From assembly GCA_965224245.1 (NCBI GenBank), contig OZ245046.1, positions 576,001-640,000 on the forward strand: a stretch of DNA of 64,000 nucleotides, written 5' to 3'. This DNA is from Candidatus Eiseniibacteriota bacterium (GTDB taxonomy: Bacteria; Eisenbacteria; RBG-16-71-46; CAZAMP01). The translations under genes were made by a program, and so were the position numbers. The notes under the pieces were generated by a model. The model worked only from the letters and a program-made list of their open reading frames with translations. It did no database searches and was not told the origin of the DNA. Shown here one piece after another: positions 3,101-44,368 of this stretch (within the stretch, counting starts at the first letter, position 1; each line of letters starts with the position of its first letter).

Positions 3101-6100
3101 CTGCCGGACGAGAGCGGCACGGGTCCCGCTTCGGCCCTCGACGTGGTGCGCACGCTGGTCGCCACTCGCGCCGAGCTGCCGCTCGAGTCCATCGGCGAGG
3201 ACGATCACGTGCTCGACGACCTCCGGCTCAACTCCATCGTCGTGGGTGAGATCGTCACCAACGCCGCGCGCCGCCTCGGACTCGACGCCCCGACGGCGCC
3301 GGCCGAGTTCGCCGACTCGACCGTCGGCGAGATCGCGGCCGCCCTGGCGGCGCTTCTGGAAGACGGTCCGCGCGGACGCGATCGATCGCTCGGGCTCGCG
3401 CCGGACGACGAGATCCCCGAGGGCGTCTCGACGTGGTTTCGGACCTTCGCCACCGAGTGGGTCGAGGCGCCGGCGCCCGCGAGCGCCCCGCTACCGGACG
3501 TCCGGTGGGAGGTGCTGGGGGACCCGACCGATGGGCTGGTGGCCGAGCTCACCGCGCGTCTCGGAGAGGCCGGCTCCGGCGATGCCGAGGCACCCGGTGG
3601 AACGCTCGTCGTCCTTCCGGCACGGGTGTCCGACGACGACGTCGTCGCCGCCGTGGATGCGGCCGGCGCGCACCTCGGACGCGGAGGAACGCACTTCGTT
3701 CTGGTCCAGCGCGCGGACACGCTGGCGAGCCTCGCCCGGACGCTCCACCTCGAGGACCGGCGGGTCACGACCCGCATCGTCACCGTGCCCGACGGCTCGC
3801 CCCGCTCCGCCCGCGCGATCCTGGCGGAGATCGCCGGAGACGGGCAAATCGTCGAGGCGCGCTACGAGTCCGATGGGCGCCGGGTCGTTCCCGTTCTCGG
3901 GCACGTTCCGATCGGGCGCGATGGAGCGAGCGCCGATGGGTCCGGCACGGTCGAGCCGGCCGCCGGGCTCGGTGCCGACGACGTCCTGCTCGTGACCGGC
4001 GGAGGCAAAGGCATCGCCGCCGAGTGCGCGCTCGCGATCGCCGCCAAGACCCGGACCGCGCTGCTGCTGATCGGACGCTCGGATCCGGCACACGACCCCG
4101 TGCTCGCGGGAAACCTGGCGCGGATCGCCGGCGCCGGGTGTCGCGCACACTACGCGCGCGCCGACGTCACCGACCCGGCGGCGGTCGCGAACGCGGTGGC
4201 CGAGGGAGCCCGCGTGCTCGGCCCGATCACGGGCGTCCTTCACGGGGCGGGGCGAAACGAGCCGTCGCGGATTCGCATGCTCGATCGAGACCGGGTGCTC
4301 GCGACGCTCGCCCCGAAGACGCGGGGCCTCGAGCACGTGCTCGCGTCCGTGGACCCCTCGTCGCTTCGGCTGCTGGTGACGTTCGGATCGATCATCGCCA
4401 CCGCCGGTCTGGCCGGAGAGGCCGACTATGCGATCGCCAACGAGCGCCTGGCGGCGATGACCGCGGCGTTCGGGCACGCCAATCCGACGTGTCGCTGCGT
4501 GTGTCTGGGATGGTCCATCTGGTCGGGAACCGGAATGGGAGAGCGTCTGGGCCGCGTCGAGACGCTCGCGCGTCAGGGGGTCGTTGCGATCACGCCCGAC
4601 GCCGGAGTCGACGTCCTCGGGCGTATCCTGCGAGCACCGGCGCTTCCCACGCACCTCGTGGTGACCGGCCGGTTCGGAGACCCGCCGACCGTTCGAACCG
4701 AGCCCGGCGAGCTGCCGCTCCGGCGTTTCCTGGAGCGGCCGCGTGTGCACGTCCCCGGCGTCGAGCTCGTCGCCGACGCGACCGTCGATCCCGCGCACGA
4801 TCCGTATCTGGACGACCACGTTCTCGACGGGGTCCGGGTGTTCCCCGCCGTGATGGGCCTCGAGGCGATGGCCCAGGTCGCGATGGCGCTGGCGAGGCGC
4901 GACGACCCGCCGGCCTTCCACGACGTCCGGTTCGATCGTGCCGTGACGATTCCCGAGACGGGTGCGACGTTGCGGATCGCCGCACTCGCGGACGTCGACG
5001 GCGCACACCCGGGCGCGGGTGTGATTCGTGTCGTCGTCAGGTCCTCCGAGACGTCGTACGCCGTCGATCACTTCACCGCACGCTGCCGGTTCACCGACGC
5101 GCCGCCGCCCGACGTGGATCCGATCGCGAACGGACGCCCGGCCCGGTTCGATCTCGGGGATCGTCTGTACCGCGAGATCCTGTTCCAGCGCGGTCGCTTC
5201 GCCCGCGCCGGAGGGTACGACGACGTGCAGGCGCGACGTTGCGTCGGCCGGCTCACGGCCGCGCCGCCGGTCGGCTGGTTCGGTGCGTTTCTGCCCCAGG
5301 CGCTCGTGCTGGGCGATCCCGGCCGTCGCGATGCCATGCTCCACGGGATCCAGGTCAGCGTTCCGCACCGCCGGCTGCTTCCGGTGTCGGCGACCGAGAT
5401 CGTGTTCCGGCCGTGCGGCGGCGCCGCGGAGCCCGGCGCGCCTCGGAGCGCATCGGACGCGGCGGTGTTCCGGGCGGTCGAGACCGCGCACCGGGGGGCC
5501 GACTACACCTACGACGTCGACGCCGGCGAGGAGCGCGGAGTCGTCGTCGAGTGCTGGCGCGGACTCGTCTTCCGGGCCGTGGGCCCGATACCCCTGCCCG
5601 AGACGTGGCCCCGCCCCTTGCTCGGCTCGTATCTCGAGCGGCGGATCGCCGAGACGTGGCCCGACCGCGTCTCGCACGTCGCGGTGGATCGATCCGGGAC
5701 GTCGACCGAGGACATCCTGCGCGCCGCGATCGCGGCGTCGACACACGTGCACCGGCGGCCCGACGGGAAGCCCGTGCTGTCGAACGGGACGCCGGTGGCG
5801 ATCTCGACGCACGGTCCGCTCGCGCTCGCGGTCGTCGCGGCCGATCCGGCACCGGTCGGGTGTGACGTCGAGGCGGTCGTCCCGCGTGACCGAGACGCCT
5901 GGCGGGCGCTCGTCGGGGATCGCGGCTGCGAGGTCGCGGAGCTCGTGTCCATGCGTGTCCCGGAGCCGTTCGACGCGGCGGCGACGCGCGTGTGGTGCAT
6001 CAAGGAGTCCGTGCGCAAGGCGGGGGGAACCTGGAATGAGGTGCTGAGCGTGACGTCGGTCGACGATGCCGCCTGGGTTCGCTTCAGGGCCGGATCGTTC

Positions 6101-6235
6101 CAGGTGGCGACGCTGCGCGTCGTGCTGGAGCCGGACCCGGATCTCGATGCGGGCGGCACAGGGTGCGGCGGTCCGATGATCGTCGCGGTGCTCGTCGAAG
6201 AACGCGGCTCGGAGGCGGCGCGTGAAGGCGTATGA
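98..6235 (+). CDS. pksE: Enediyne iterative type I polyketide synthase (KS-AT-ACP-KR-DH-PPTase)
   Basis: KS: GGGYTVDGACSSS, EGHGTGT, GHTKAAAG. AT: GHSLG and HAFHS (malonyl-type). Central ACP: DDLRLNSIVVGEIV. KR: TGGGKGI...DYAIAN. DH: YLDDHVLDGVRVFPAVMGLEAMAQ. C-terminal PPTase: GCDVE...WCIKESVRK. This domain order is diagnostic of PksE. Start moved from 53 to ATG 98 because of the ATGA coupling. Confidence 0.95.
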   Translation: MSRSSTRPLQPRGSTPGGAAIAVVGMACRYPDADSPQALWENVLAQRQSFRRMPRERLDLDDHYSDDRGAPDRTYATMAAVLEGYAFDRVAHRVAGSTYRSADLAHWLALDVATDALADAGLPAGDGLPRDTTGVLIGNSLTGEFSRAATLRVRWPYVKRVVGAALAGGGWSDEDVSSFLRRLEVSYKAPFAPVGDETLAGGLSNTIAGRICNAFDFKGGGYTVDGACSSSLLAIANACSALTVGDLDAAIVGGVDLSLDPFEIVGFAKVGALAPDRMRVYDARSAGFWPGEGSGMLVLMRLADAIATGRRVLGIIRGWGISSDGTGGITRPEVAGQRLAIARAYARAGYGIDTLGYVEGHGTGTTVGDATEIDVLGGALREAGAGRRVALGSIKANIGHTKAAAGAAGFLRALLAVGHGIVPPHAGTRTPHPSLEAGDAPLRLPREPEGWDAASRRAGVSSMGFGGINVHITLEADGSDAPRGRRLAPRTARLARTPQDVELFGITAPTREALGRRLESLRSQCETLAFSELPDLAATLAREAARGPHRVALIADSPAELARRIDDSLARLSMDGPVVDGSGGLFIGSGPAPRIGFLFPGQGSPSRPDGGSVRRRFERAAALYERVGRDGLFPAVEDPTDTALAQPAILAATLVTLEVLDAVGVRARAALGHSLGEIAALAWGGALSHEGALRLSAARGRAMASVPGPAGAMASIAASPEDVAAWLAELDLAAGATGDATAPGAVPDRGGAVGHGVVIAGYNGPARTVVSGPSEAVDAFVERVTARGATATRLRVSHAFHSGLMAPASTGLAAAIAAESWRPCSRVVVSTVTGDRVPERADVGDLLRRQLTEPVRFSDALSVLARDVDLLIEVGPGTSLATLAAAQVSTPVVATDGCGDSLRGLLGAIGAAWALGASVDLESLFGDRAVRPFDGHRPHAFLANPCESAPRPGAPDGSPVTPSHAGTLPAPAIPAAASPPGHTGGGGATLDERVDDARDEGLPDESGTGPASALDVVRTLVATRAELPLESIGEDDHVLDDLRLNSIVVGEIVTNAARRLGLDAPTAPAEFADSTVGEIAAALAALLEDGPRGRDRSLGLAPDDEIPEGVSTWFRTFATEWVEAPAPASAPLPDVRWEVLGDPTDGLVAELTARLGEAGSGDAEAPGGTLVVLPARVSDDDVVAAVDAAGAHLGRGGTHFVLVQRADTLASLARTLHLEDRRVTTRIVTVPDGSPRSARAILAEIAGDGQIVEARYESDGRRVVPVLGHVPIGRDGASADGSGTVEPAAGLGADDVLLVTGGGKGIAAECALAIAAKTRTALLLIGRSDPAHDPVLAGNLARIAGAGCRAHYARADVTDPAAVANAVAEGARVLGPITGVLHGAGRNEPSRIRMLDRDRVLATLAPKTRGLEHVLASVDPSSLRLLVTFGSIIATAGLAGEADYAIANERLAAMTAAFGHANPTCRCVCLGWSIWSGTGMGERLGRVETLARQGVVAITPDAGVDVLGRILRAPALPTHLVVTGRFGDPPTVRTEPGELPLRRFLERPRVHVPGVELVADATVDPAHDPYLDDHVLDGVRVFPAVMGLEAMAQVAMALARRDDPPAFHDVRFDRAVTIPETGATLRIAALADVDGAHPGAGVIRVVVRSSETSYAVDHFTARCRFTDAPPPDVDPIANGRPARFDLGDRLYREILFQRGRFARAGGYDDVQARRCVGRLTAAPPVGWFGAFLPQALVLGDPGRRDAMLHGIQVSVPHRRLLPVSATEIVFRPCGGAAEPGAPRSASDAAVFRAVETAHRGADYTYDVDAGEERGVVVECWRGLVFRAVGPIPLPETWPRPLLGSYLERRIAETWPDRVSHVAVDRSGTSTEDILRAAIAASTHVHRRPDGKPVLSNGTPVAISTHGPLALAVVAADPAPVGCDVEAVVPRDRDAWRALVGDRGCEVAELVSMRVPEPFDAAATRVWCIKESVRKAGGTWNEVLSVTSVDDAAWVRFRAGSFQVATLRVVLEPDPDLDAGGTGCGGPMIVAVLVEERGSEAAREGV

Positions 6236-6647
6236 GTACCGGCACCTCGTCGGCTTCGCGGAGACGAACGTCGTGGGGAACGTCTACTTCTCCCACCACG
6301 TCGCCTGGCAGGGGCGCTGTCGCGAGGCGTTCCTCCGCGAGCACTGTCCGTCGTTGCTCGACGAGCTCACGTCGGGGCTCGCGCTGGTCACGCTCAGCTG
6401 CCGTTGCGAGTACGTGTCCGAGGTGCTCGCGCTCGAAGAGGTGATCGTGCGCATGACCCTCGCGGAGTCGTCGCAGAACCGCGTCGCGATGCGGTTCGAC
6501 TACGTGGTCGTGCGGGATGGCACCGAGCGGATCGTGGCCCGCGGCGGGCAGGAGATCGCGTGCATGCGCCGGACCGCCGGCGGCCTCGAGGCCACGAGCG
6601 TTCCCGTCGAGCTGTCCCGGGCGCTGGAGCCGTACCGCTCGCGCTGA
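6222..6647 (+). CDS. Enediyne hot-dog-fold thioesterase (E10; SgcE10/CalE7/DynE7-like)
   Basis: YEYRHLVGFAETNVVGNVYF...WQGRCRE.FL motif; overlaps the 3' end of pksE, as in enediyne cassettes. Confidence 0.93.
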   Translation: MKAYEYRHLVGFAETNVVGNVYFSHHVAWQGRCREAFLREHCPSLLDELTSGLALVTLSCRCEYVSEVLALEEVIVRMTLAESSQNRVAMRFDYVVVRDGTERIVARGGQEIACMRRTAGGLEATSVPVELSRALEPYRSR

Positions 6648-40973: not shown

Positions 40974-41507
40974 ATGGGGAATCAGCTGCGGGCGGTTCTG
41001 ACGTTCATCGTCCTGCTCTGGGTGATCGAGATCGTCGACCAGCTCACGGGCCGGTCGCTCGACGCGTGGGGGATCCGGCCTCGCACGCTCGAGGGTCTCC
41101 GGGGCATTCCGCTCGCTCCGTTCTTGCACGGCGGGTTCGGGCACCTCGTGGCGAACACGGGTCCGCTTCTCGTGCTCGGGCTCTTCGTCATCATGGCGGG
41201 CGTCGGCGAGTTCGTAGAGGCGACGGTGCTGATCGTGCTCCTGGGTGGGCTCGGCACGTGGCTCATCGGGCGCGGCGACGCCGTGCACATCGGGGCCAGC
41301 GGAGTCGTGTTCGGGTACGTCAGCTACCTCATCGTGCGGGGTATCCTCGTGCGGAGCTTCGCCGGCTTCACCATCGCGGTGATCGTGGCGGTGGTGTACG
41401 GCGGCCTCCTGTGGGGCGTTCTGCCCAGCCACCGCGGCGTCTCGTGGGAGGCGCACCTGTCCGGGCTCGTTGCCGGCGTGCTGGTCGCGTGGTTGAGACT
41501 GCGCTGA
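40974..41507 (+). CDS. Rhomboid family intramembrane serine protease
   Basis: PFLHGGFGHL..N, HIGASG (catalytic Ser), SWEAHL.G (catalytic His). Confidence 0.92.
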   Translation: MGNQLRAVLTFIVLLWVIEIVDQLTGRSLDAWGIRPRTLEGLRGIPLAPFLHGGFGHLVANTGPLLVLGLFVIMAGVGEFVEATVLIVLLGGLGTWLIGRGDAVHIGASGVVFGYVSYLIVRGILVRSFAGFTIAVIVAVVYGGLLWGVLPSHRGVSWEAHLSGLVAGVLVAWLRLR

Positions 41508-41539
41508 GCGAACACCGAGACCGAGAAGGGGGAATCGAG

Positions 41540-42172
41540 ATGCGTGCTTGGACTCTCGCCTTTGGCCTGGTCGTCCCCGTGGCCGCAACGGCACAGCTCT
41601 ACGACGGCGACGCGAATCTCAACGTCTTCCTGACCGTGCCGAGCTACGCCGGCTGCAGTGAGCCCGAGTTCGAGGCTATCGACGCCGGCTCGTGTGCCGA
41701 CCTCGTGAGCGAGCCGACCGGAGGCCCGGGCTTCCTGTGGTGCGTCGCCAGCCGTGAGGGTGGCTTTCCAGACGGCATCGGCGGCATCCAGTTCGGCGTC
41801 GAGCACGATCTCGGGGCCGGATTGCCGTGGTCGCTCTGCACCGGGGGCTCGGAGATTCCCGAGCCGGGCTGGCCGGATTCGGGCACGGGCAACGCGATCA
41901 CGTGGAGCGCGGGGTGCTATCACCCGATCGGATTCGCCGCACGCATCGGGTACCTGAGCCCCGAGCCGGACGACGTGGGCATCATCGAGCTGACTCCCGA
42001 TCCGCGCATCGCGCTCGCCGTCTATGCCGACTGCTCGGCCGTCCTCTACGAGATGTGCGAGGCGAACCTGGGCAGCGCGGAGCTCGCGGACGGCACGACG
42101 CCGGTGTGCGGGGAGAACTGCGAGATCCCGATCCGGGAGACGAGCTGGGGCGCGATCAAATCTCTCTTCTGA
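41540..42172 (+). CDS. Secreted Cys-rich protein with a C-terminal SWGxIKxLF motif
   Basis: Signal peptide MRAWTLAFGLVVPVAATA; ends PIRETSWGAIKSLF; AAGGGGG RBS. Confidence 0.75.
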   Translation: MRAWTLAFGLVVPVAATAQLYDGDANLNVFLTVPSYAGCSEPEFEAIDAGSCADLVSEPTGGPGFLWCVASREGGFPDGIGGIQFGVEHDLGAGLPWSLCTGGSEIPEPGWPDSGTGNAITWSAGCYHPIGFAARIGYLSPEPDDVGIIELTPDPRIALAVYADCSAVLYEMCEANLGSAELADGTTPVCGENCEIPIRETSWGAIKSLF

Positions 42173-42203
42173 CGTCCGGCGACCCATTTGGGGTTTCCGG
42201 GAC

Positions 42204-42232
42204 TTGACGCGCCGCCGGCGGCCGACTAGGTT
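42204..42232 (+). promoter_or_regulatory. Sigma70-type promoter of the micro-protein/lgt operon
   Basis: TTGACG-N17-TAGGTT. Confidence 0.6.
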
Positions 42233-42308
42233 CGCGAGCGTCCGAGCGAATTCGAACGGCAGTAGGCTCGTCCCGGCACGGACGCCGGGCCAGAACTCGG
42301 AGGCTTCG

Positions 42309-42560
42309 ATGCGACGTCGCATGGCGATCAGCTCGATGATTGGCGCGCTCATCGTGGGTATGGCCTCGATCGCGAGCGCGGACACGGCGCAGTCCTCGAG
42401 CTCGAGCTCGAGCAACAGCGCGGTGAAGAGTCAGGCGACCAGCCGGACCGCAGGAGAGTCCTGCTGCCGGACGTCGGGGTCGGACAAGCTCGCGGCGCTG
42501 AGCCTCCTGCCCATCGTCGTCGCCGGAGCCGCGCGCCGGCGGATGCGCGGCCGCGACTAG
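42309..42560 (+). CDS. 83-aa exported micro-protein: signal peptide, Ser-rich linker, Cys-Cys, hydrophobic helix, Arg cluster (CTERM-like)
   Basis: GGAGG RBS 5 nt upstream. MRRRMAISSMIGALIVGMASIASA|DTAQSSSSSSSNSAVKSQATSRTAGESCCRTSGSDKLAALSLLPIVVAGAARRRMRGRD. Confidence 0.7.
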   Translation: MRRRMAISSMIGALIVGMASIASADTAQSSSSSSSNSAVKSQATSRTAGESCCRTSGSDKLAALSLLPIVVAGAARRRMRGRD

Positions 42561-42569
42561 TCACCCACC

Positions 42570-43457
42570 GTGCGCCCCGCGCTCGTCGATGCACTGGCCG
42601 GGGCGCTCGGCACCGACGCCTTCGGGTGGCTGGTGCCCACCGCGTTCATCTTCTATCCGCTCGCGATGTGCGCCGTCGCGTTTCTCTTCGTGCGGCGCAC
42701 GCGCGTGTCGGGGCTGTTCCGCTATCACGCTCTCGGTGCCGTGGTCTGGACGGGGCTCGGCGGGCTTCTCGGGTCCCGCCTTCTCTATCTCCTCCTGCAC
42801 GTCGACCAGCTTCTCGCCGAGCCCCGGATCCTCCTCGACGTGGGAGGCGCCAGCATGTCGTTCGGCGCGTACCTGGGGAGCATCGCGGGGTTCGTCGGCT
42901 ACTTCGCGCGCGAGCGCATCCCGGTGTGGCCGTACGGAGACGTGATGGCGTCCGCCATCGGCATCGGTCCGGCGATCGGACGGCTCTCGTGCTTCATGGC
43001 CGGTGACGACTTCGGAACGATCACGACCGTGCCGTGGGCGGTGACCTATCCACCGGGCAGCGACGCGTTCCACAGTCACGTCGCCCGCGGACTCCTGGAT
43101 CCCTCGAGCACCGCGTCGCTGCCGGTGCATCCGGTGCAGCTCTACCTGGCCGCGAACGGGCTCGTGCTGCTCGCCGTGTTCACGTGGCTCTGGCGGCGAG
43201 GGCGCTACCGGCCCGGCGAGCTGCTGATCGGGTACTGGGCCGCCTACGGGGCCACGCGCTTCTGCTGGGAGTTCTTCCGCGGCGATCAGGCCCGGCGTTT
43301 CGTGATGGGGCTTCCGGACGCGCAGATCATCGCGGCGGCGATCTGCCTCGCGTCGGTCGCGATCCTGATCGTGAGGCGTCGCCGCGCCGGCGGTCAGTCG
43401 CCTCCCGTCTCCGAATCGCCGTCCGCGGCCGCACCCGGCTCGGCCATCCGAACGTAG
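42570..43457 (+). CDS. lgt: Prolipoprotein diacylglyceryl transferase (Lgt) family paralog
   Basis: GSRLLY, IGRLSCFMAGDDFG, VHPVQLY, RFCWEFFRGD; starts 9 nt after the micro-protein stop. Confidence 0.85.
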   Translation: MRPALVDALAGALGTDAFGWLVPTAFIFYPLAMCAVAFLFVRRTRVSGLFRYHALGAVVWTGLGGLLGSRLLYLLLHVDQLLAEPRILLDVGGASMSFGAYLGSIAGFVGYFARERIPVWPYGDVMASAIGIGPAIGRLSCFMAGDDFGTITTVPWAVTYPPGSDAFHSHVARGLLDPSSTASLPVHPVQLYLAANGLVLLAVFTWLWRRGRYRPGELLIGYWAAYGATRFCWEFFRGDQARRFVMGLPDAQIIAAAICLASVAILIVRRRRAGGQSPPVSESPSAAAPGSAIRT

Positions 43458-44368
43458 GTGCCGTCGAACCACACGTACCAGGTGGCGCCATCGTCCCTGG
43501 ACTGCTCGATGAACTGGCGAACGCTTCCGTCGTCGTTCGGGGTGAACGTCATCCGGAAGCGTTCGCTGGAGCCGTCTCGGGCGACGTTGGCGCCCTCGAA
43601 GTGCATTGCCCCGTCCACCAGACCACCCTGGCAGCTGATGTTGCCTCCGGCCTGATCGGTCCAGATCTGGCGCCATCGGTCGATCGCCGGATCGAAGAAG
43701 TTGATCGACTTGCCGGCGCTGCCGCTGGCCGACGTCCAGCTCTCGGTGATCACGCAGTCGCGGAGGTCCTTTCGGATCTCGTTCGTGCCGACCAGCTGAC
43801 CCGACGGGTCGTAGACGTTCCAGCGTCCCACCCAGAAGTCGAACTCGCGATAGCGCTCGTCGTACGCGCACGGCTGTGCATTCATCCGCGCGGCGTCGAG
43901 GATCCCGGGAAAGCGCTCGTGGTCGCGGATCGTGACGAGGTCGGGATCGGTCTCCAGGCGCTCGGGGTCCTGATAGCCGGCATTCACGGCGTCGACGAGC
44001 CAGACGATCGCGAGCGAGCCCATGTCCTGACGCGCGAATGCACGCGCCAGGTTGAAGCGCGTGAACGGGGGCGCGATTCCGAGCTCGTTGGCCTTCGCGA
44101 GTGCGGTGGCGGCCGACTCGTTCTCTCGGAGCTCGAGCCGCGACAGGCCGAGGCGGAGCCAGGCCAGCGCGTTCCCGGGATCCTCGTCGACGACGCGCTG
44201 GTAGGCCGCGGCGGCGTTTCGCCACTCGGCGGCCCTGAAGTGGGCGTGGGCGTCGTCGATGGGAGCCGCCTCGGGTGGGGCCGTCGTCGGTGCGAACGGA
44301 TCGACCACGGTGGCAGCGAGCGTGACGAGCAACGCCAGGAAGACGGTGCGGGCACGAAGACGGATCAC
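43394..44368 (-). CDS. Exported TPR-repeat protein with an uncharacterised C-terminal beta domain
   Basis: Signal peptide; TPR-like 'AWLRLG...FNLARAFA...DPDL..IRDHERF'; then 'FDFWVGRWNV...WRQIWTD...S.D.GATW...F...Y.R'. Confidence 0.75.
   Translation of the reverse strand: MIRLRARTVFLALLVTLAATVVDPFAPTTAPPEAAPIDDAHAHFRAAEWRNAAAAYQRVVDEDPGNALAWLRLGLSRLELRENESAATALAKANELGIAPPFTRFNLARAFARQDMGSLAIVWLVDAVNAGYQDPERLETDPDLVTIRDHERFPGILDAARMNAQPCAYDERYREFDFWVGRWNVYDPSGQLVGTNEIRKDLRDCVITESWTSASGSAGKSINFFDPAIDRWRQIWTDQAGGNISCQGGLVDGAMHFEGANVARDGSSERFRMTFTPNDDGSVRQFIEQSRDDGATWYVWFDGTYVRMAEPGAAADGDSETGGD

Follow-up and report, generated by a model that had tools for sequence, protein, structure and literature searches.

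A divergent Lgt paralog and its tail-bearing neighbor in Candidatus Eiseniibacteriota: a candidate cassette for lipidation of a C-terminal cysteine sorting signal

INTRODUCTION

This paper describes a two-gene locus in a stretch of 64,000 nucleotides (the window; G+C 70.5%) from a Candidatus Eiseniibacteriota bacterium (assembly GCA_965224245.1, contig OZ245046.1, positions 576,001 to 640,000 of the forward strand), in which a small open reading frame (ORF) for a protein of 83 amino acids (aa) with a cysteine-containing C-terminal tail is directly followed by a gene for a divergent paralog of the Lgt family. An earlier note, made from the sequence alone, had put the pair forward as a candidate C-terminal lipid-anchoring system, and this proposal is evaluated here by comparison of the locus with related loci, with the other Lgt copies of the same genome (the own genome), and with known C-terminal sorting systems.

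RESULTS

The Small ORF and Its Product

The features of the locus are given below in window coordinates.

42204-42232, + strand: proposed promoter, weak (TTGACG at 42204-42209, spacer of 17 nt, TAGGTT at 42227-42232), read from the sequence
42299-42303, + strand: Shine-Dalgarno-like GGAGG, 5 nt ahead of the ATG, read from the sequence
42309-42560, + strand: pre-protein gene (P0002), 83 aa, almost only targeting signals, from the translation
42309-42380, + strand: Sec-type signal peptide MRRRMAISSMIGALIVGMASIASA, residues 1-24, ending in A-S-A and with zero Cys, from the translation; cleavage site inferred
42462-42467, + strand: Cys52-Cys53, the sole cysteines of the 83-aa protein, from the translation and the tail alignment
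42489-42533, + strand: hydrophobic helix L61-A75, 15 residues, from the translation and the tail alignment
42534-42557, + strand: basic C-terminal end RRRMRGRD, predicted to be cytoplasmic by the positive-inside rule, from the translation
42570-43457, + strand: divergent Lgt-family gene (P0001), 295 aa, GTG start, from PF01790, TIGR00544, and AlphaFold2

The 83-aa protein consists of little besides signals, just as the earlier note had described it: a Sec signal peptide that ends in ASA and lacks Cys is followed by a Ser-rich linker, the residues E50-S51-C52-C53, seven polar residues, the helix L61-A75, and the end RRRMRGRD, in which the Arg cluster R76-R78 stands directly after the helix. The elements C52-C53, L61-A75, and R76-R78 thus make up a tripartite tail of the MYXO-CTERM-like kind, and the protein contains no Cys before residue 52. 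The third-position G+C (GC3) of the small ORF is 0.90, which is gene-like in view of the 0.86-0.93 of the adjoining genes and the 0.67 found in the same frame upstream, and the small ORF therefore resembles a real gene. The reported ribosome-binding site is present (GGAGG, 5 nt ahead of the ATG), as is the reported close spacing of the two genes, with a gap of 9 nt between the stop codon of the small ORF at 42558-42560 and the GTG start of the Lgt-family gene at 42570. The promoter, which had been presented as a clean sigma70 promoter, did not live up to that description: the hexamers TTGACG and TAGGTT with their 17-nt spacer match 8 of the 12 consensus bases, and a promoter scan of positions 41400-43800 called zero sites, so that the word "clean" was an overstatement.

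The Lgt Paralog and the Other Lgt Copies of the Genome

The product of the second gene was assigned to the Lgt family by Pfam model PF01790 (114.6 bits against a gathering score of 24.9, residues 27-267), and it remains below the cut-off of the NCBIfam TIGR00544 lgt equivalog model (77.8 versus 118.9 bits). The gene is intact, with a gene-like GC3 of 0.89, and its GTG start is backed by relatives, which share an Arg-Pro start (R2 and P3 are nearly invariant in the clade). The AlphaFold2 model (predicted local distance difference test [pLDDT] 90.2; predicted template modeling score [pTM] 0.84) has the predicted seven-helix Lgt fold, and its single match among solved structures at E ≤0.001 was Escherichia coli Lgt (5azb; template modeling [TM] scores 0.68/0.70; E 4.7e-8). 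The motifs GR..CF, HP.QLY, and RF..EF.R that had been read in the sequence are indeed present and align with R143, with H196-Y201, and with R239/E243/R246 of the E. coli enzyme, respectively. Residues R138, R230, E234, and R237 of the window copy are the equivalents of E. coli R143, R239, E243, and R246, for none of which a mutant complements in that species (PMC4728403). Among 153 Lgt sequences compared, R138, R230, and R237 are invariant and E234 is nearly so. The Cys of GR..CF was considered as a special feature and was rejected as such, being found in 153 of the 153 sequences.

Three PF01790 genes are encoded in the 6.9-Mb assembly.

C1:2106881-2107624: housekeeping Lgt, PF01790 196.5 bits, TIGR00544 144.1 bits (cut-off 118.9)
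C1:5973524-5974246: second paralog (L002), PF01790 125.3 bits, TIGR00544 82.3 bits
Window 42570-43457: window copy, PF01790 114.6 bits, TIGR00544 77.8 bits

A separate housekeeping lgt, which scores above the equivalog cut-off while the window copy scores below it, is therefore available in this organism, and the objection that the window gene could be the only lgt of the genome is removed.

Tail-Bearing Genes Adjoin Relatives of the Paralog

A collection of 5.8 billion proteins yielded 82 matches to the paralog at E ≤1e-5 among the 8000 candidates scored, of which about 43 were 40-57% identical to it, and a library of 1.84 billion representatives yielded 53 proteins at E 1e-30. An alignment of 43 clade members was used to fetch loci, and taking the best 80 of 380 confirmed relatives from species genomes and the best 80 of 280 from metagenome contigs resulted in 160 loci. 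Of these, 145 have at least 200 nt of upstream sequence, and the other 15 lack upstream sequence. The 31 control Lgt loci consisted of the two remaining copies of the own genome together with housekeeping copies from relatives. A locus passed the tail test when a same-strand ORF ended between 350 nt before and 60 nt past the Lgt start, and when the last 60 residues of that ORF contained a stretch of 14 residues without charged or amide residues, at least 2 Arg/Lys after this stretch, and a Cys at most 25 residues before it.

The tail test was passed at 85 of the 145 loci, distributed over many phyla, and at none of the 31 control loci. The gap between the tail-bearing gene and the Lgt gene has a median of 0 nt, is at most 25 nt in 69 of the 85 pairs, and is an overlap in 41 of them; such short gaps and overlaps are typical of genes that are translated together. 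The background of the test in the own genome amounts to 1825 of 71385 (2.6%) stop-to-stop ORFs of at least 50 aa and to 189 of 14878 (1.3%) of those of at least 200 aa. When the Cys was not required, a helix-plus-basic tail was found at 90 of the 145 loci, in 85 of which a Cys is present at most 25 residues before the helix (the corresponding background is 90 of the 331 helix-plus-basic tails in long ORFs of the own genome); three Cys occur in 36 and two in 29 of these 90 tails. Taken by phylum, the named records showed the pairing in 16 of the 17 Acidobacteriota that have upstream sequence, in 12 of 12 Bacteroidota, 5 of 6 Ignavibacteriota, 4 of 5 Calditrichota, and 3 of 12 Gemmatimonadota, and six further phyla contributed single cases.

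The earlier expectation that a small ORF with two cysteines, a transmembrane helix, and RRR would be conserved upstream of homologs was thus borne out for the tail and failed for the size of the protein that carries it, which is seldom a micro-protein: complete partners have a median length of about 817 aa, and the window ORF and the partner at L076 (≤145 aa) are the only convincingly small ones. Taken together, the comparative tests support the reading of the locus as a two-gene cassette, in which a putative substrate is followed by its own Lgt-type transferase.

Distribution of the Tail over the Lgt Tree

The phylogeny was constructed with FastTree from 153 rows, representing about 124 distinct Lgt proteins of the loci, 29 of the 31 controls, and the window copy; 29 loci with fragments were left out and duplicates were merged. 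A single group of 111 rows, with a support of 93, takes in all tail-associated copies and not one of the relatives' 28 housekeeping copies. Within this group, a clade of 69 rows contains 58 members with a tail and 5 that lack one, the remaining 6 having no upstream sequence. Two smaller groups are tail-positive in 7 of 7 and in 3 of 5 members; in the two exceptions of the latter, the tail gene lies at a distance of one gene. The tail label changes 13 times on the tree, compared with a mean of 50.8 after shuffling, and none of 500 shuffles gave a number as low; since kin share labels, this test shows clustering only. The window copy belongs to a fully supported subclade of 8 rows, of which 7 have a tail and 1 is without upstream sequence. 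Its fellow members, found on metagenome contigs, share 51-55% identity with the window copy, and their partners, of 383-653 aa and some with BNR repeat matches, end in a CC-, CCC-, or CxxC-type motif, a helix, and WRRR.

The tail-associated copies can also be recognized by specific residues. The position of E. coli H103 in the HGGL arm-2 motif, for which no mutant complements (PMC4728403), is occupied by Phe98 in the window copy and by Trp in 36, Phe in 27, and Tyr in 6 of 70 tail-associated copies. The same position is Tyr in the housekeeping Lgt of the own genome and in 28 of the 29 control housekeeping copies. The loss of His103 was therefore rejected as a hallmark of the paralog: because the housekeeping copies of related genomes have Tyr, absence of His is a trait of these lineages. 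The earlier observation that the canonical SFHGG is replaced accordingly stands in so far as the His is truly missing relative to E. coli, with the qualification that the replacement is not particular to the paralog. What sets the tail-associated copies apart from the housekeeping copies is Ser97 (in 58 of 70), Trp/Phe98, and G-D-D at positions 145-147, where 25 of the 29 controls have G-C-C.

One Tail per Genome on Unrelated Passengers

The bodies of the partners, obtained by removal of the last 60 residues, were compared by BLASTP for the 75 partners with at least 80 residues left. They fall into 10 families unrelated to each other by this comparison, with 48, 9, 4, 4, 2, 2, 2, 2, 1, and 1 members, and the micro-protein of the window stands separate. 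The largest family comprises secreted proteins of about 800 aa with a PepSY match, and the HExxH zinc-protease motif was found in 33 of the 33 complete members checked; further families carry FG-GAP or BNR repeats. In one Ignavibacteriales locus (L034), copies of the metalloprotease of about 800 aa are encoded on both sides of the Lgt paralog (372-2870 and 3891-6398).

The 48 complete partners with a recognizable signal peptide mostly have one that ends in an Ala-x-Ala-type site; 15 of the 48 have zero Cys in their first 40 residues, and 2 have loose matches to a lipobox. An N-terminal lipobox on the partners was thereby rejected as the target of the paralog. This bears on the alternative that the paralog serves N-terminal lipoboxes, perhaps atypical ones, as an ordinary or back-up Lgt, and that its adjacency to tail genes reflects inherited gene order with no functional link to the tail. 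The paralog is a member of PF01790 in which all catalytic residues that were checked are kept, adjacency could largely stem from a single inherited operon given that 48 of the 75 partners belong to one family, and the gene for the second paralog of the own genome is preceded by one whose product has a Cys and an N-terminal signal peptide. Yet the partner in the window is devoid of any N-terminal Cys, lipobox-like matches are confined to 2 of 48 complete partners, the pairing tracks the tail across 10 unrelated passenger families with the Cys just before the helix in 85 of the 90 helix-plus-basic tails, and the tail-associated copies form clades of their own, apart from the 28 housekeeping copies of relatives. 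On these grounds an ordinary Lgt function is considered very unlikely.

In an alignment of 31 tails, one Cys (equivalent to C52) and one Pro within the helix (equivalent to P68) are nearly invariant, and many tails contain two to three cysteines in a CxC pattern. A profile of the tails had exactly one match per genome, the Lgt neighbor, in 5 of 5 cassette genomes, and no match in any of 5 genomes from the sister clade that lacks tails. The same five cassette genomes also hold a higher-scoring housekeeping Lgt (175-251 bits versus 126-152 bits for the paralogs). A scan of the own genome for other proteins with this tail, as had been advised, returned only the small ORF (E 1.3e-6, the small ORF itself being a row of the profile), and the next-ranked hits were PEP-CTERM-type tails without Cys.

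These alignments are equally relevant to the idea that the paralog recognizes the tail and does something else with it, such as acting as a receptor or insertase, transferring another lipid or head group, or modifying lipids, with the cysteines serving disulfide or metal chemistry. Such an idea would fit the residues by which the clade differs, namely Ser97 (58 of 70) and Trp/Phe98 near arm-2 and, in the signature motif, G-D-D versus the G-C-C of 25 of 29 controls. It would also fit the orientation of the tail helix, which is opposite to that of a signal peptide, and the two to three Cys in a CxC pattern in many tails. Against it, those indispensable E. coli residues that allowed alignment are retained (R143, R239, E243, and R246, together with Y235, which aligns with Y226 of the window copy and has a Tyr equivalent in 55 of 70 tail-associated copies), and a single nearly invariant Cys is what would be expected of an acceptor. 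A different activity is therefore regarded as improbable.

Predicted Complex of the Paralog and the Tail

A complex prediction for the Lgt paralog with the tail gave a score of 0.43 (runs of 0.43, 0.67, and 0.40), compared with 0.00 for the best of 3 controls; the runs share at least 60% of their contacts, and the partner has a pLDDT of at least 55. Of 80 solved complexes, 58 reach the mark used for a complex, as do 2 of 110 mismatched pairs, and at scores ≤0.60 only 7 of the 80 solved complexes passed, together with both of the passing mismatches; these calibration counts hold only roughly, as custom alignments were used for the present pair. The predicted complex lends weak support to the pairing of paralog and tail.

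DISCUSSION

A Probable Transferase Dedicated to the Tail of Its Neighbor

The findings are best accommodated by a model in which a dedicated Lgt-type transferase would lipidate the tail Cys of its single neighbor, the tail being a MYXO-CTERM-like signal that operates without a myxosortase; this model is given a probability of about 0.6. In this model, the 83-aa protein would be exported by Sec and its signal peptide cut after ASA24, after which the C-terminal helix would anchor it in the inner membrane with the N-terminus out and the C-terminus in, leaving the Arg cluster in the cytoplasm. Cys52/53 would thereby be placed at the periplasmic face, where the active site of Lgt is located, and the paralog could move a diacylglyceryl group from phosphatidylglycerol onto the tail Cys, in a reaction that would mirror that on the lipobox with a helix of opposite orientation. 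A protease may then remove the helix, yielding a C-terminally lipid-anchored product that in most relatives would be a surface zinc metalloprotease, and here a Ser-rich peptide of about 29 residues.

Several results weigh against this model. No adjacent tail was detected by the tail test at 60 of the 145 loci (at three of these, L067, L161, and L174, a tail-bearing gene is present slightly further upstream), and the sister clade of the 69-row clade, with 30 rows that are mostly from Gemmatimonadota, contains 26 members without a tail and 3 without upstream sequence next to 1 doubtful positive (its members include L069-L075, L085, L153, and L162-L170). Some of the 85 positives are probably due to chance, at least two of them (L066 and L081) being unlike the family. 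Since 48 of the 75 partners compared represent one metalloprotease family, the number of independent associations is nearer to 10 than to 85. Among 40 class-level relatives searched with the window query, no orthologue of the window Lgt was found, and the best match outside the own genome is 37% identical, compared with 33% for the own housekeeping copy; the cassette is therefore sporadic. A protease partner is conserved neither in the cassette across the 160 related loci nor within 3 kb of the 85 positives. In addition, the Myxococcus MYXO-CTERM tail is processed by MrtX in E. coli, a host without a dedicated Lgt paralog (PMC11980579), so that a dedicated enzyme is no general requirement. Finally, the score of the predicted complex is weak, and the unrelated soluble controls may have been an unfair comparison for a membrane helix.

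The 83-aa form itself is an exception among the partners and is not known to be conserved anywhere, which belongs to the same side of the balance. The small protein could represent a natural substrate of minimal size, the precursor of a lipopeptide, or a remnant. In the last case the cassette of the own genome would be decaying, whatever the family does elsewhere, in that a large passenger was lost and the 83-aa ORF is non-functional or not expressed; the lack of a passenger domain in a protein that is dwarfed by partners with a median of about 817 aa, the weak promoter match, and the missing orthologue in 40 relatives would all fit such decay. The small ORF nevertheless has a full signal peptide, a good Shine-Dalgarno sequence, a GC3 of 0.90, and the three parts of the tail with the conserved Cys and Pro, and the adjoining Lgt gene is intact with a GC3 of 0.89. 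The presence of a signal peptide on the small ORF speaks against the view that it is just the 3' remainder of some larger gene, and a second small partner is known (L076, ≤145 aa). Decay is consequently judged to be quite unlikely.

A further-reaching version of the proposal for a dedicated tail transferase is that the Lgt clade would constitute a new class of sorting enzymes, acting on a Cys before an inverted C-terminal helix in the absence of a myxosortase, and that the client in the own genome would mature into a ribosomal lipopeptide of about 29 residues with a function of its own. This extended version is put forward tentatively and appears doubtful.

Comparison with Known Sorting Systems

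For MYXO-CTERM proteins, it has been proposed that the Cys is lipidated first, by an "Lgt-like acyl-transferase," with Lgt as the leading candidate, and the 2025 paper on myxosortases speaks of lipidation "by an unknown enzyme" (PMC11980579). The window tail resembles MYXO-CTERM in its Cys motif, transmembrane helix, and Arg-rich end on a Sec-exported protein. It differs in that it has no TIGR03901 hit at E ≤10 (the best of the tails from 9 relatives, L037, reached 17.0 bits with a cut-off of 20), and in contrast to the MYXO-CTERM/MrtX system there is no myxosortase-class protease, the number of substrates per genome is one instead of dozens, and a dedicated Lgt paralog adjoins the substrate. 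The JDVT-CTERM/MrtJ system, described in the same paper as a sporadic combination in which a single enzyme accompanies a single target whose tripartite tail bears a Cys (PMC11980579), shares with the present cassette the position of the enzyme next to a single tail-bearing target (85 of 145 loci; one tail per genome in 5 of 5) and the sporadic occurrence (0 of 40 relatives), whereas the enzyme is an Lgt-family transferase here and a CPBP glutamic protease there.

The window Lgt is like E. coli Lgt (5azb/5azc) in its fold, in the equivalents of R143, R239, E243, and R246, and in the retention of HP.QLY. It is unlike the canonical enzyme in remaining below the equivalog cut-off with 77.8 bits, in having Ser-Phe/Trp where E. 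coli has Phe-His, and in having G-D-D in place of G-C-C. Unlike in a lipobox, the presumed acceptor Cys does not follow an N-terminal signal peptide and is located 7 residues before a C-terminal helix of opposite orientation.

GlyGly-CTERM/rhombosortase and PGF-CTERM/archaeosortase A likewise involve tripartite signals at the C-terminus, which a lipid anchor replaces, and the likeness to the former extends to a rhomboid gene about 0.8 kb upstream in the window. However, the window tail lacks Gly-Gly and has Cys as its conserved residue, and the rhomboid of the window scores 28 bits where 84 are required and is found in 0 of 160 related loci. When known CTERM models were applied to 10 tails, none scored above cut-off except that of the close relative L117 (...NCCNGG, helix, WRRR; 2251-2400), which reached 15.9 bits on the GlyGly-CTERM model and thereby exceeded the cut-off of 15.5 by 0.4 bits. 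This score places the CC-type tails of the window subclade between Cys-type and GlyGly-type signals.

Lipidated peptides made via a co-opted bacterial lipoprotein pathway are the subject named in the title of PMC13056109, and a ribosomal peptide lipidated by lipoprotein-type machinery is what the 83-aa product would amount to. What distinguishes the 83-aa product is the location of its Cys, which belongs to a C-terminal tail, and the presumed use of a dedicated paralog as the transferase. The word "Lgt" is absent from the main text of the Haft preprint, whose supplementary tables could hold neighborhood data, and in the literature searched, supplements and subscription journals aside, no paper was found that reports an Lgt paralog dedicated to C-terminal signals. 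What is new is a C-terminal Cys sorting signal with a dedicated Lgt-family partner, the idea that Lgt or an Lgt-like enzyme lipidates such cysteines having already been printed as a hypothesis (PMC11980579).

With the enzyme that lipidates Cys-type C-terminal signals (MYXO-CTERM and relatives) being called unknown and Lgt being only a candidate (PMC11980579), an Lgt clade that travels with such tails across phyla and unrelated passengers provides direct comparative evidence for an Lgt-type enzyme in this role. The window moreover offers an unusually simple test object, with 83 residues, two Cys, the enzyme encoded 9 nt downstream, and a host housekeeping Lgt as a built-in control. If the model of a dedicated tail transferase is true, it would follow that the Lgt fold accepts a substrate whose helix has the opposite orientation, and surface proteases of Bacteroidota, Acidobacteriota, Ignavibacteriota, and others would have a C-terminal lipid-anchoring route.

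Neighboring Genes and Candidate Proteases

A rhomboid-family protease of 177 aa (PF01694, 78.8 bits) is encoded at 40974-41507 on the + strand. It was rejected as a rhombosortase on the basis of its 28 bits on TIGR03902, for which the cut-off is 84; for this window in particular, it may be considered as a candidate tail-cutting protease. Between the rhomboid gene and the small ORF lies a gene for a Cys-rich secreted protein of about 210 aa (41540-42172, + strand), which has a signal peptide starting MRAWTLAFGLVVPVAATAQ..., ends in ...ETSWGAIKSLF, and has no Pfam or NCBIfam match. The rhomboid, this secreted protein, and a TPR protein had no tblastn match at E ≤1e-3 in the 160 related loci. Directly downstream of Lgt, 15 of the 85 tail-positive loci encode a protein of about 714 aa whose family is not known (for example at 1073-3217 of L078), which in 10 of those loci is followed by a protein of about 277 aa.

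A conserved CPBP/myxosortase partner was not detected within 3 kb of the 85 tail-positive loci. Seven CPBP genes are present in the own genome, none of them within 340 kb of the window, and a myxosortase was rejected there, as the best Mrt_core score among the 6 of these 7 genes that were scanned was 23.8 bits, compared with a cut-off of 100 (NF040914). The same cut-off was reached in 0 of 5 cassette genomes.

Other Signals in the Own Genome

The second paralog of the own genome (L002; 280 aa) occupies a long branch that adjoins the tail-associated group in the tree. An ORF of 181 codons without a known family precedes its gene by 12 nt (both genes lie in 862-2262 of L002; C1:5972885-5974285), and has a signal-peptide-like start and a Cys in the unusual context ...VLVHHAC-GGG. 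These two genes may form a second dedicated pair of substrate and enzyme, with an N-terminal Cys in this case. ORFs with PEP-CTERM-type tails (VPEP..., helix, RRR) are encoded at C1:3450515-3451288 (- strand), C1:4595311-4596225 (+ strand), C1:4180244-4181011 (+ strand), and elsewhere in the own genome, and the organism therefore appears to have an exosortase-type sorting system as well.

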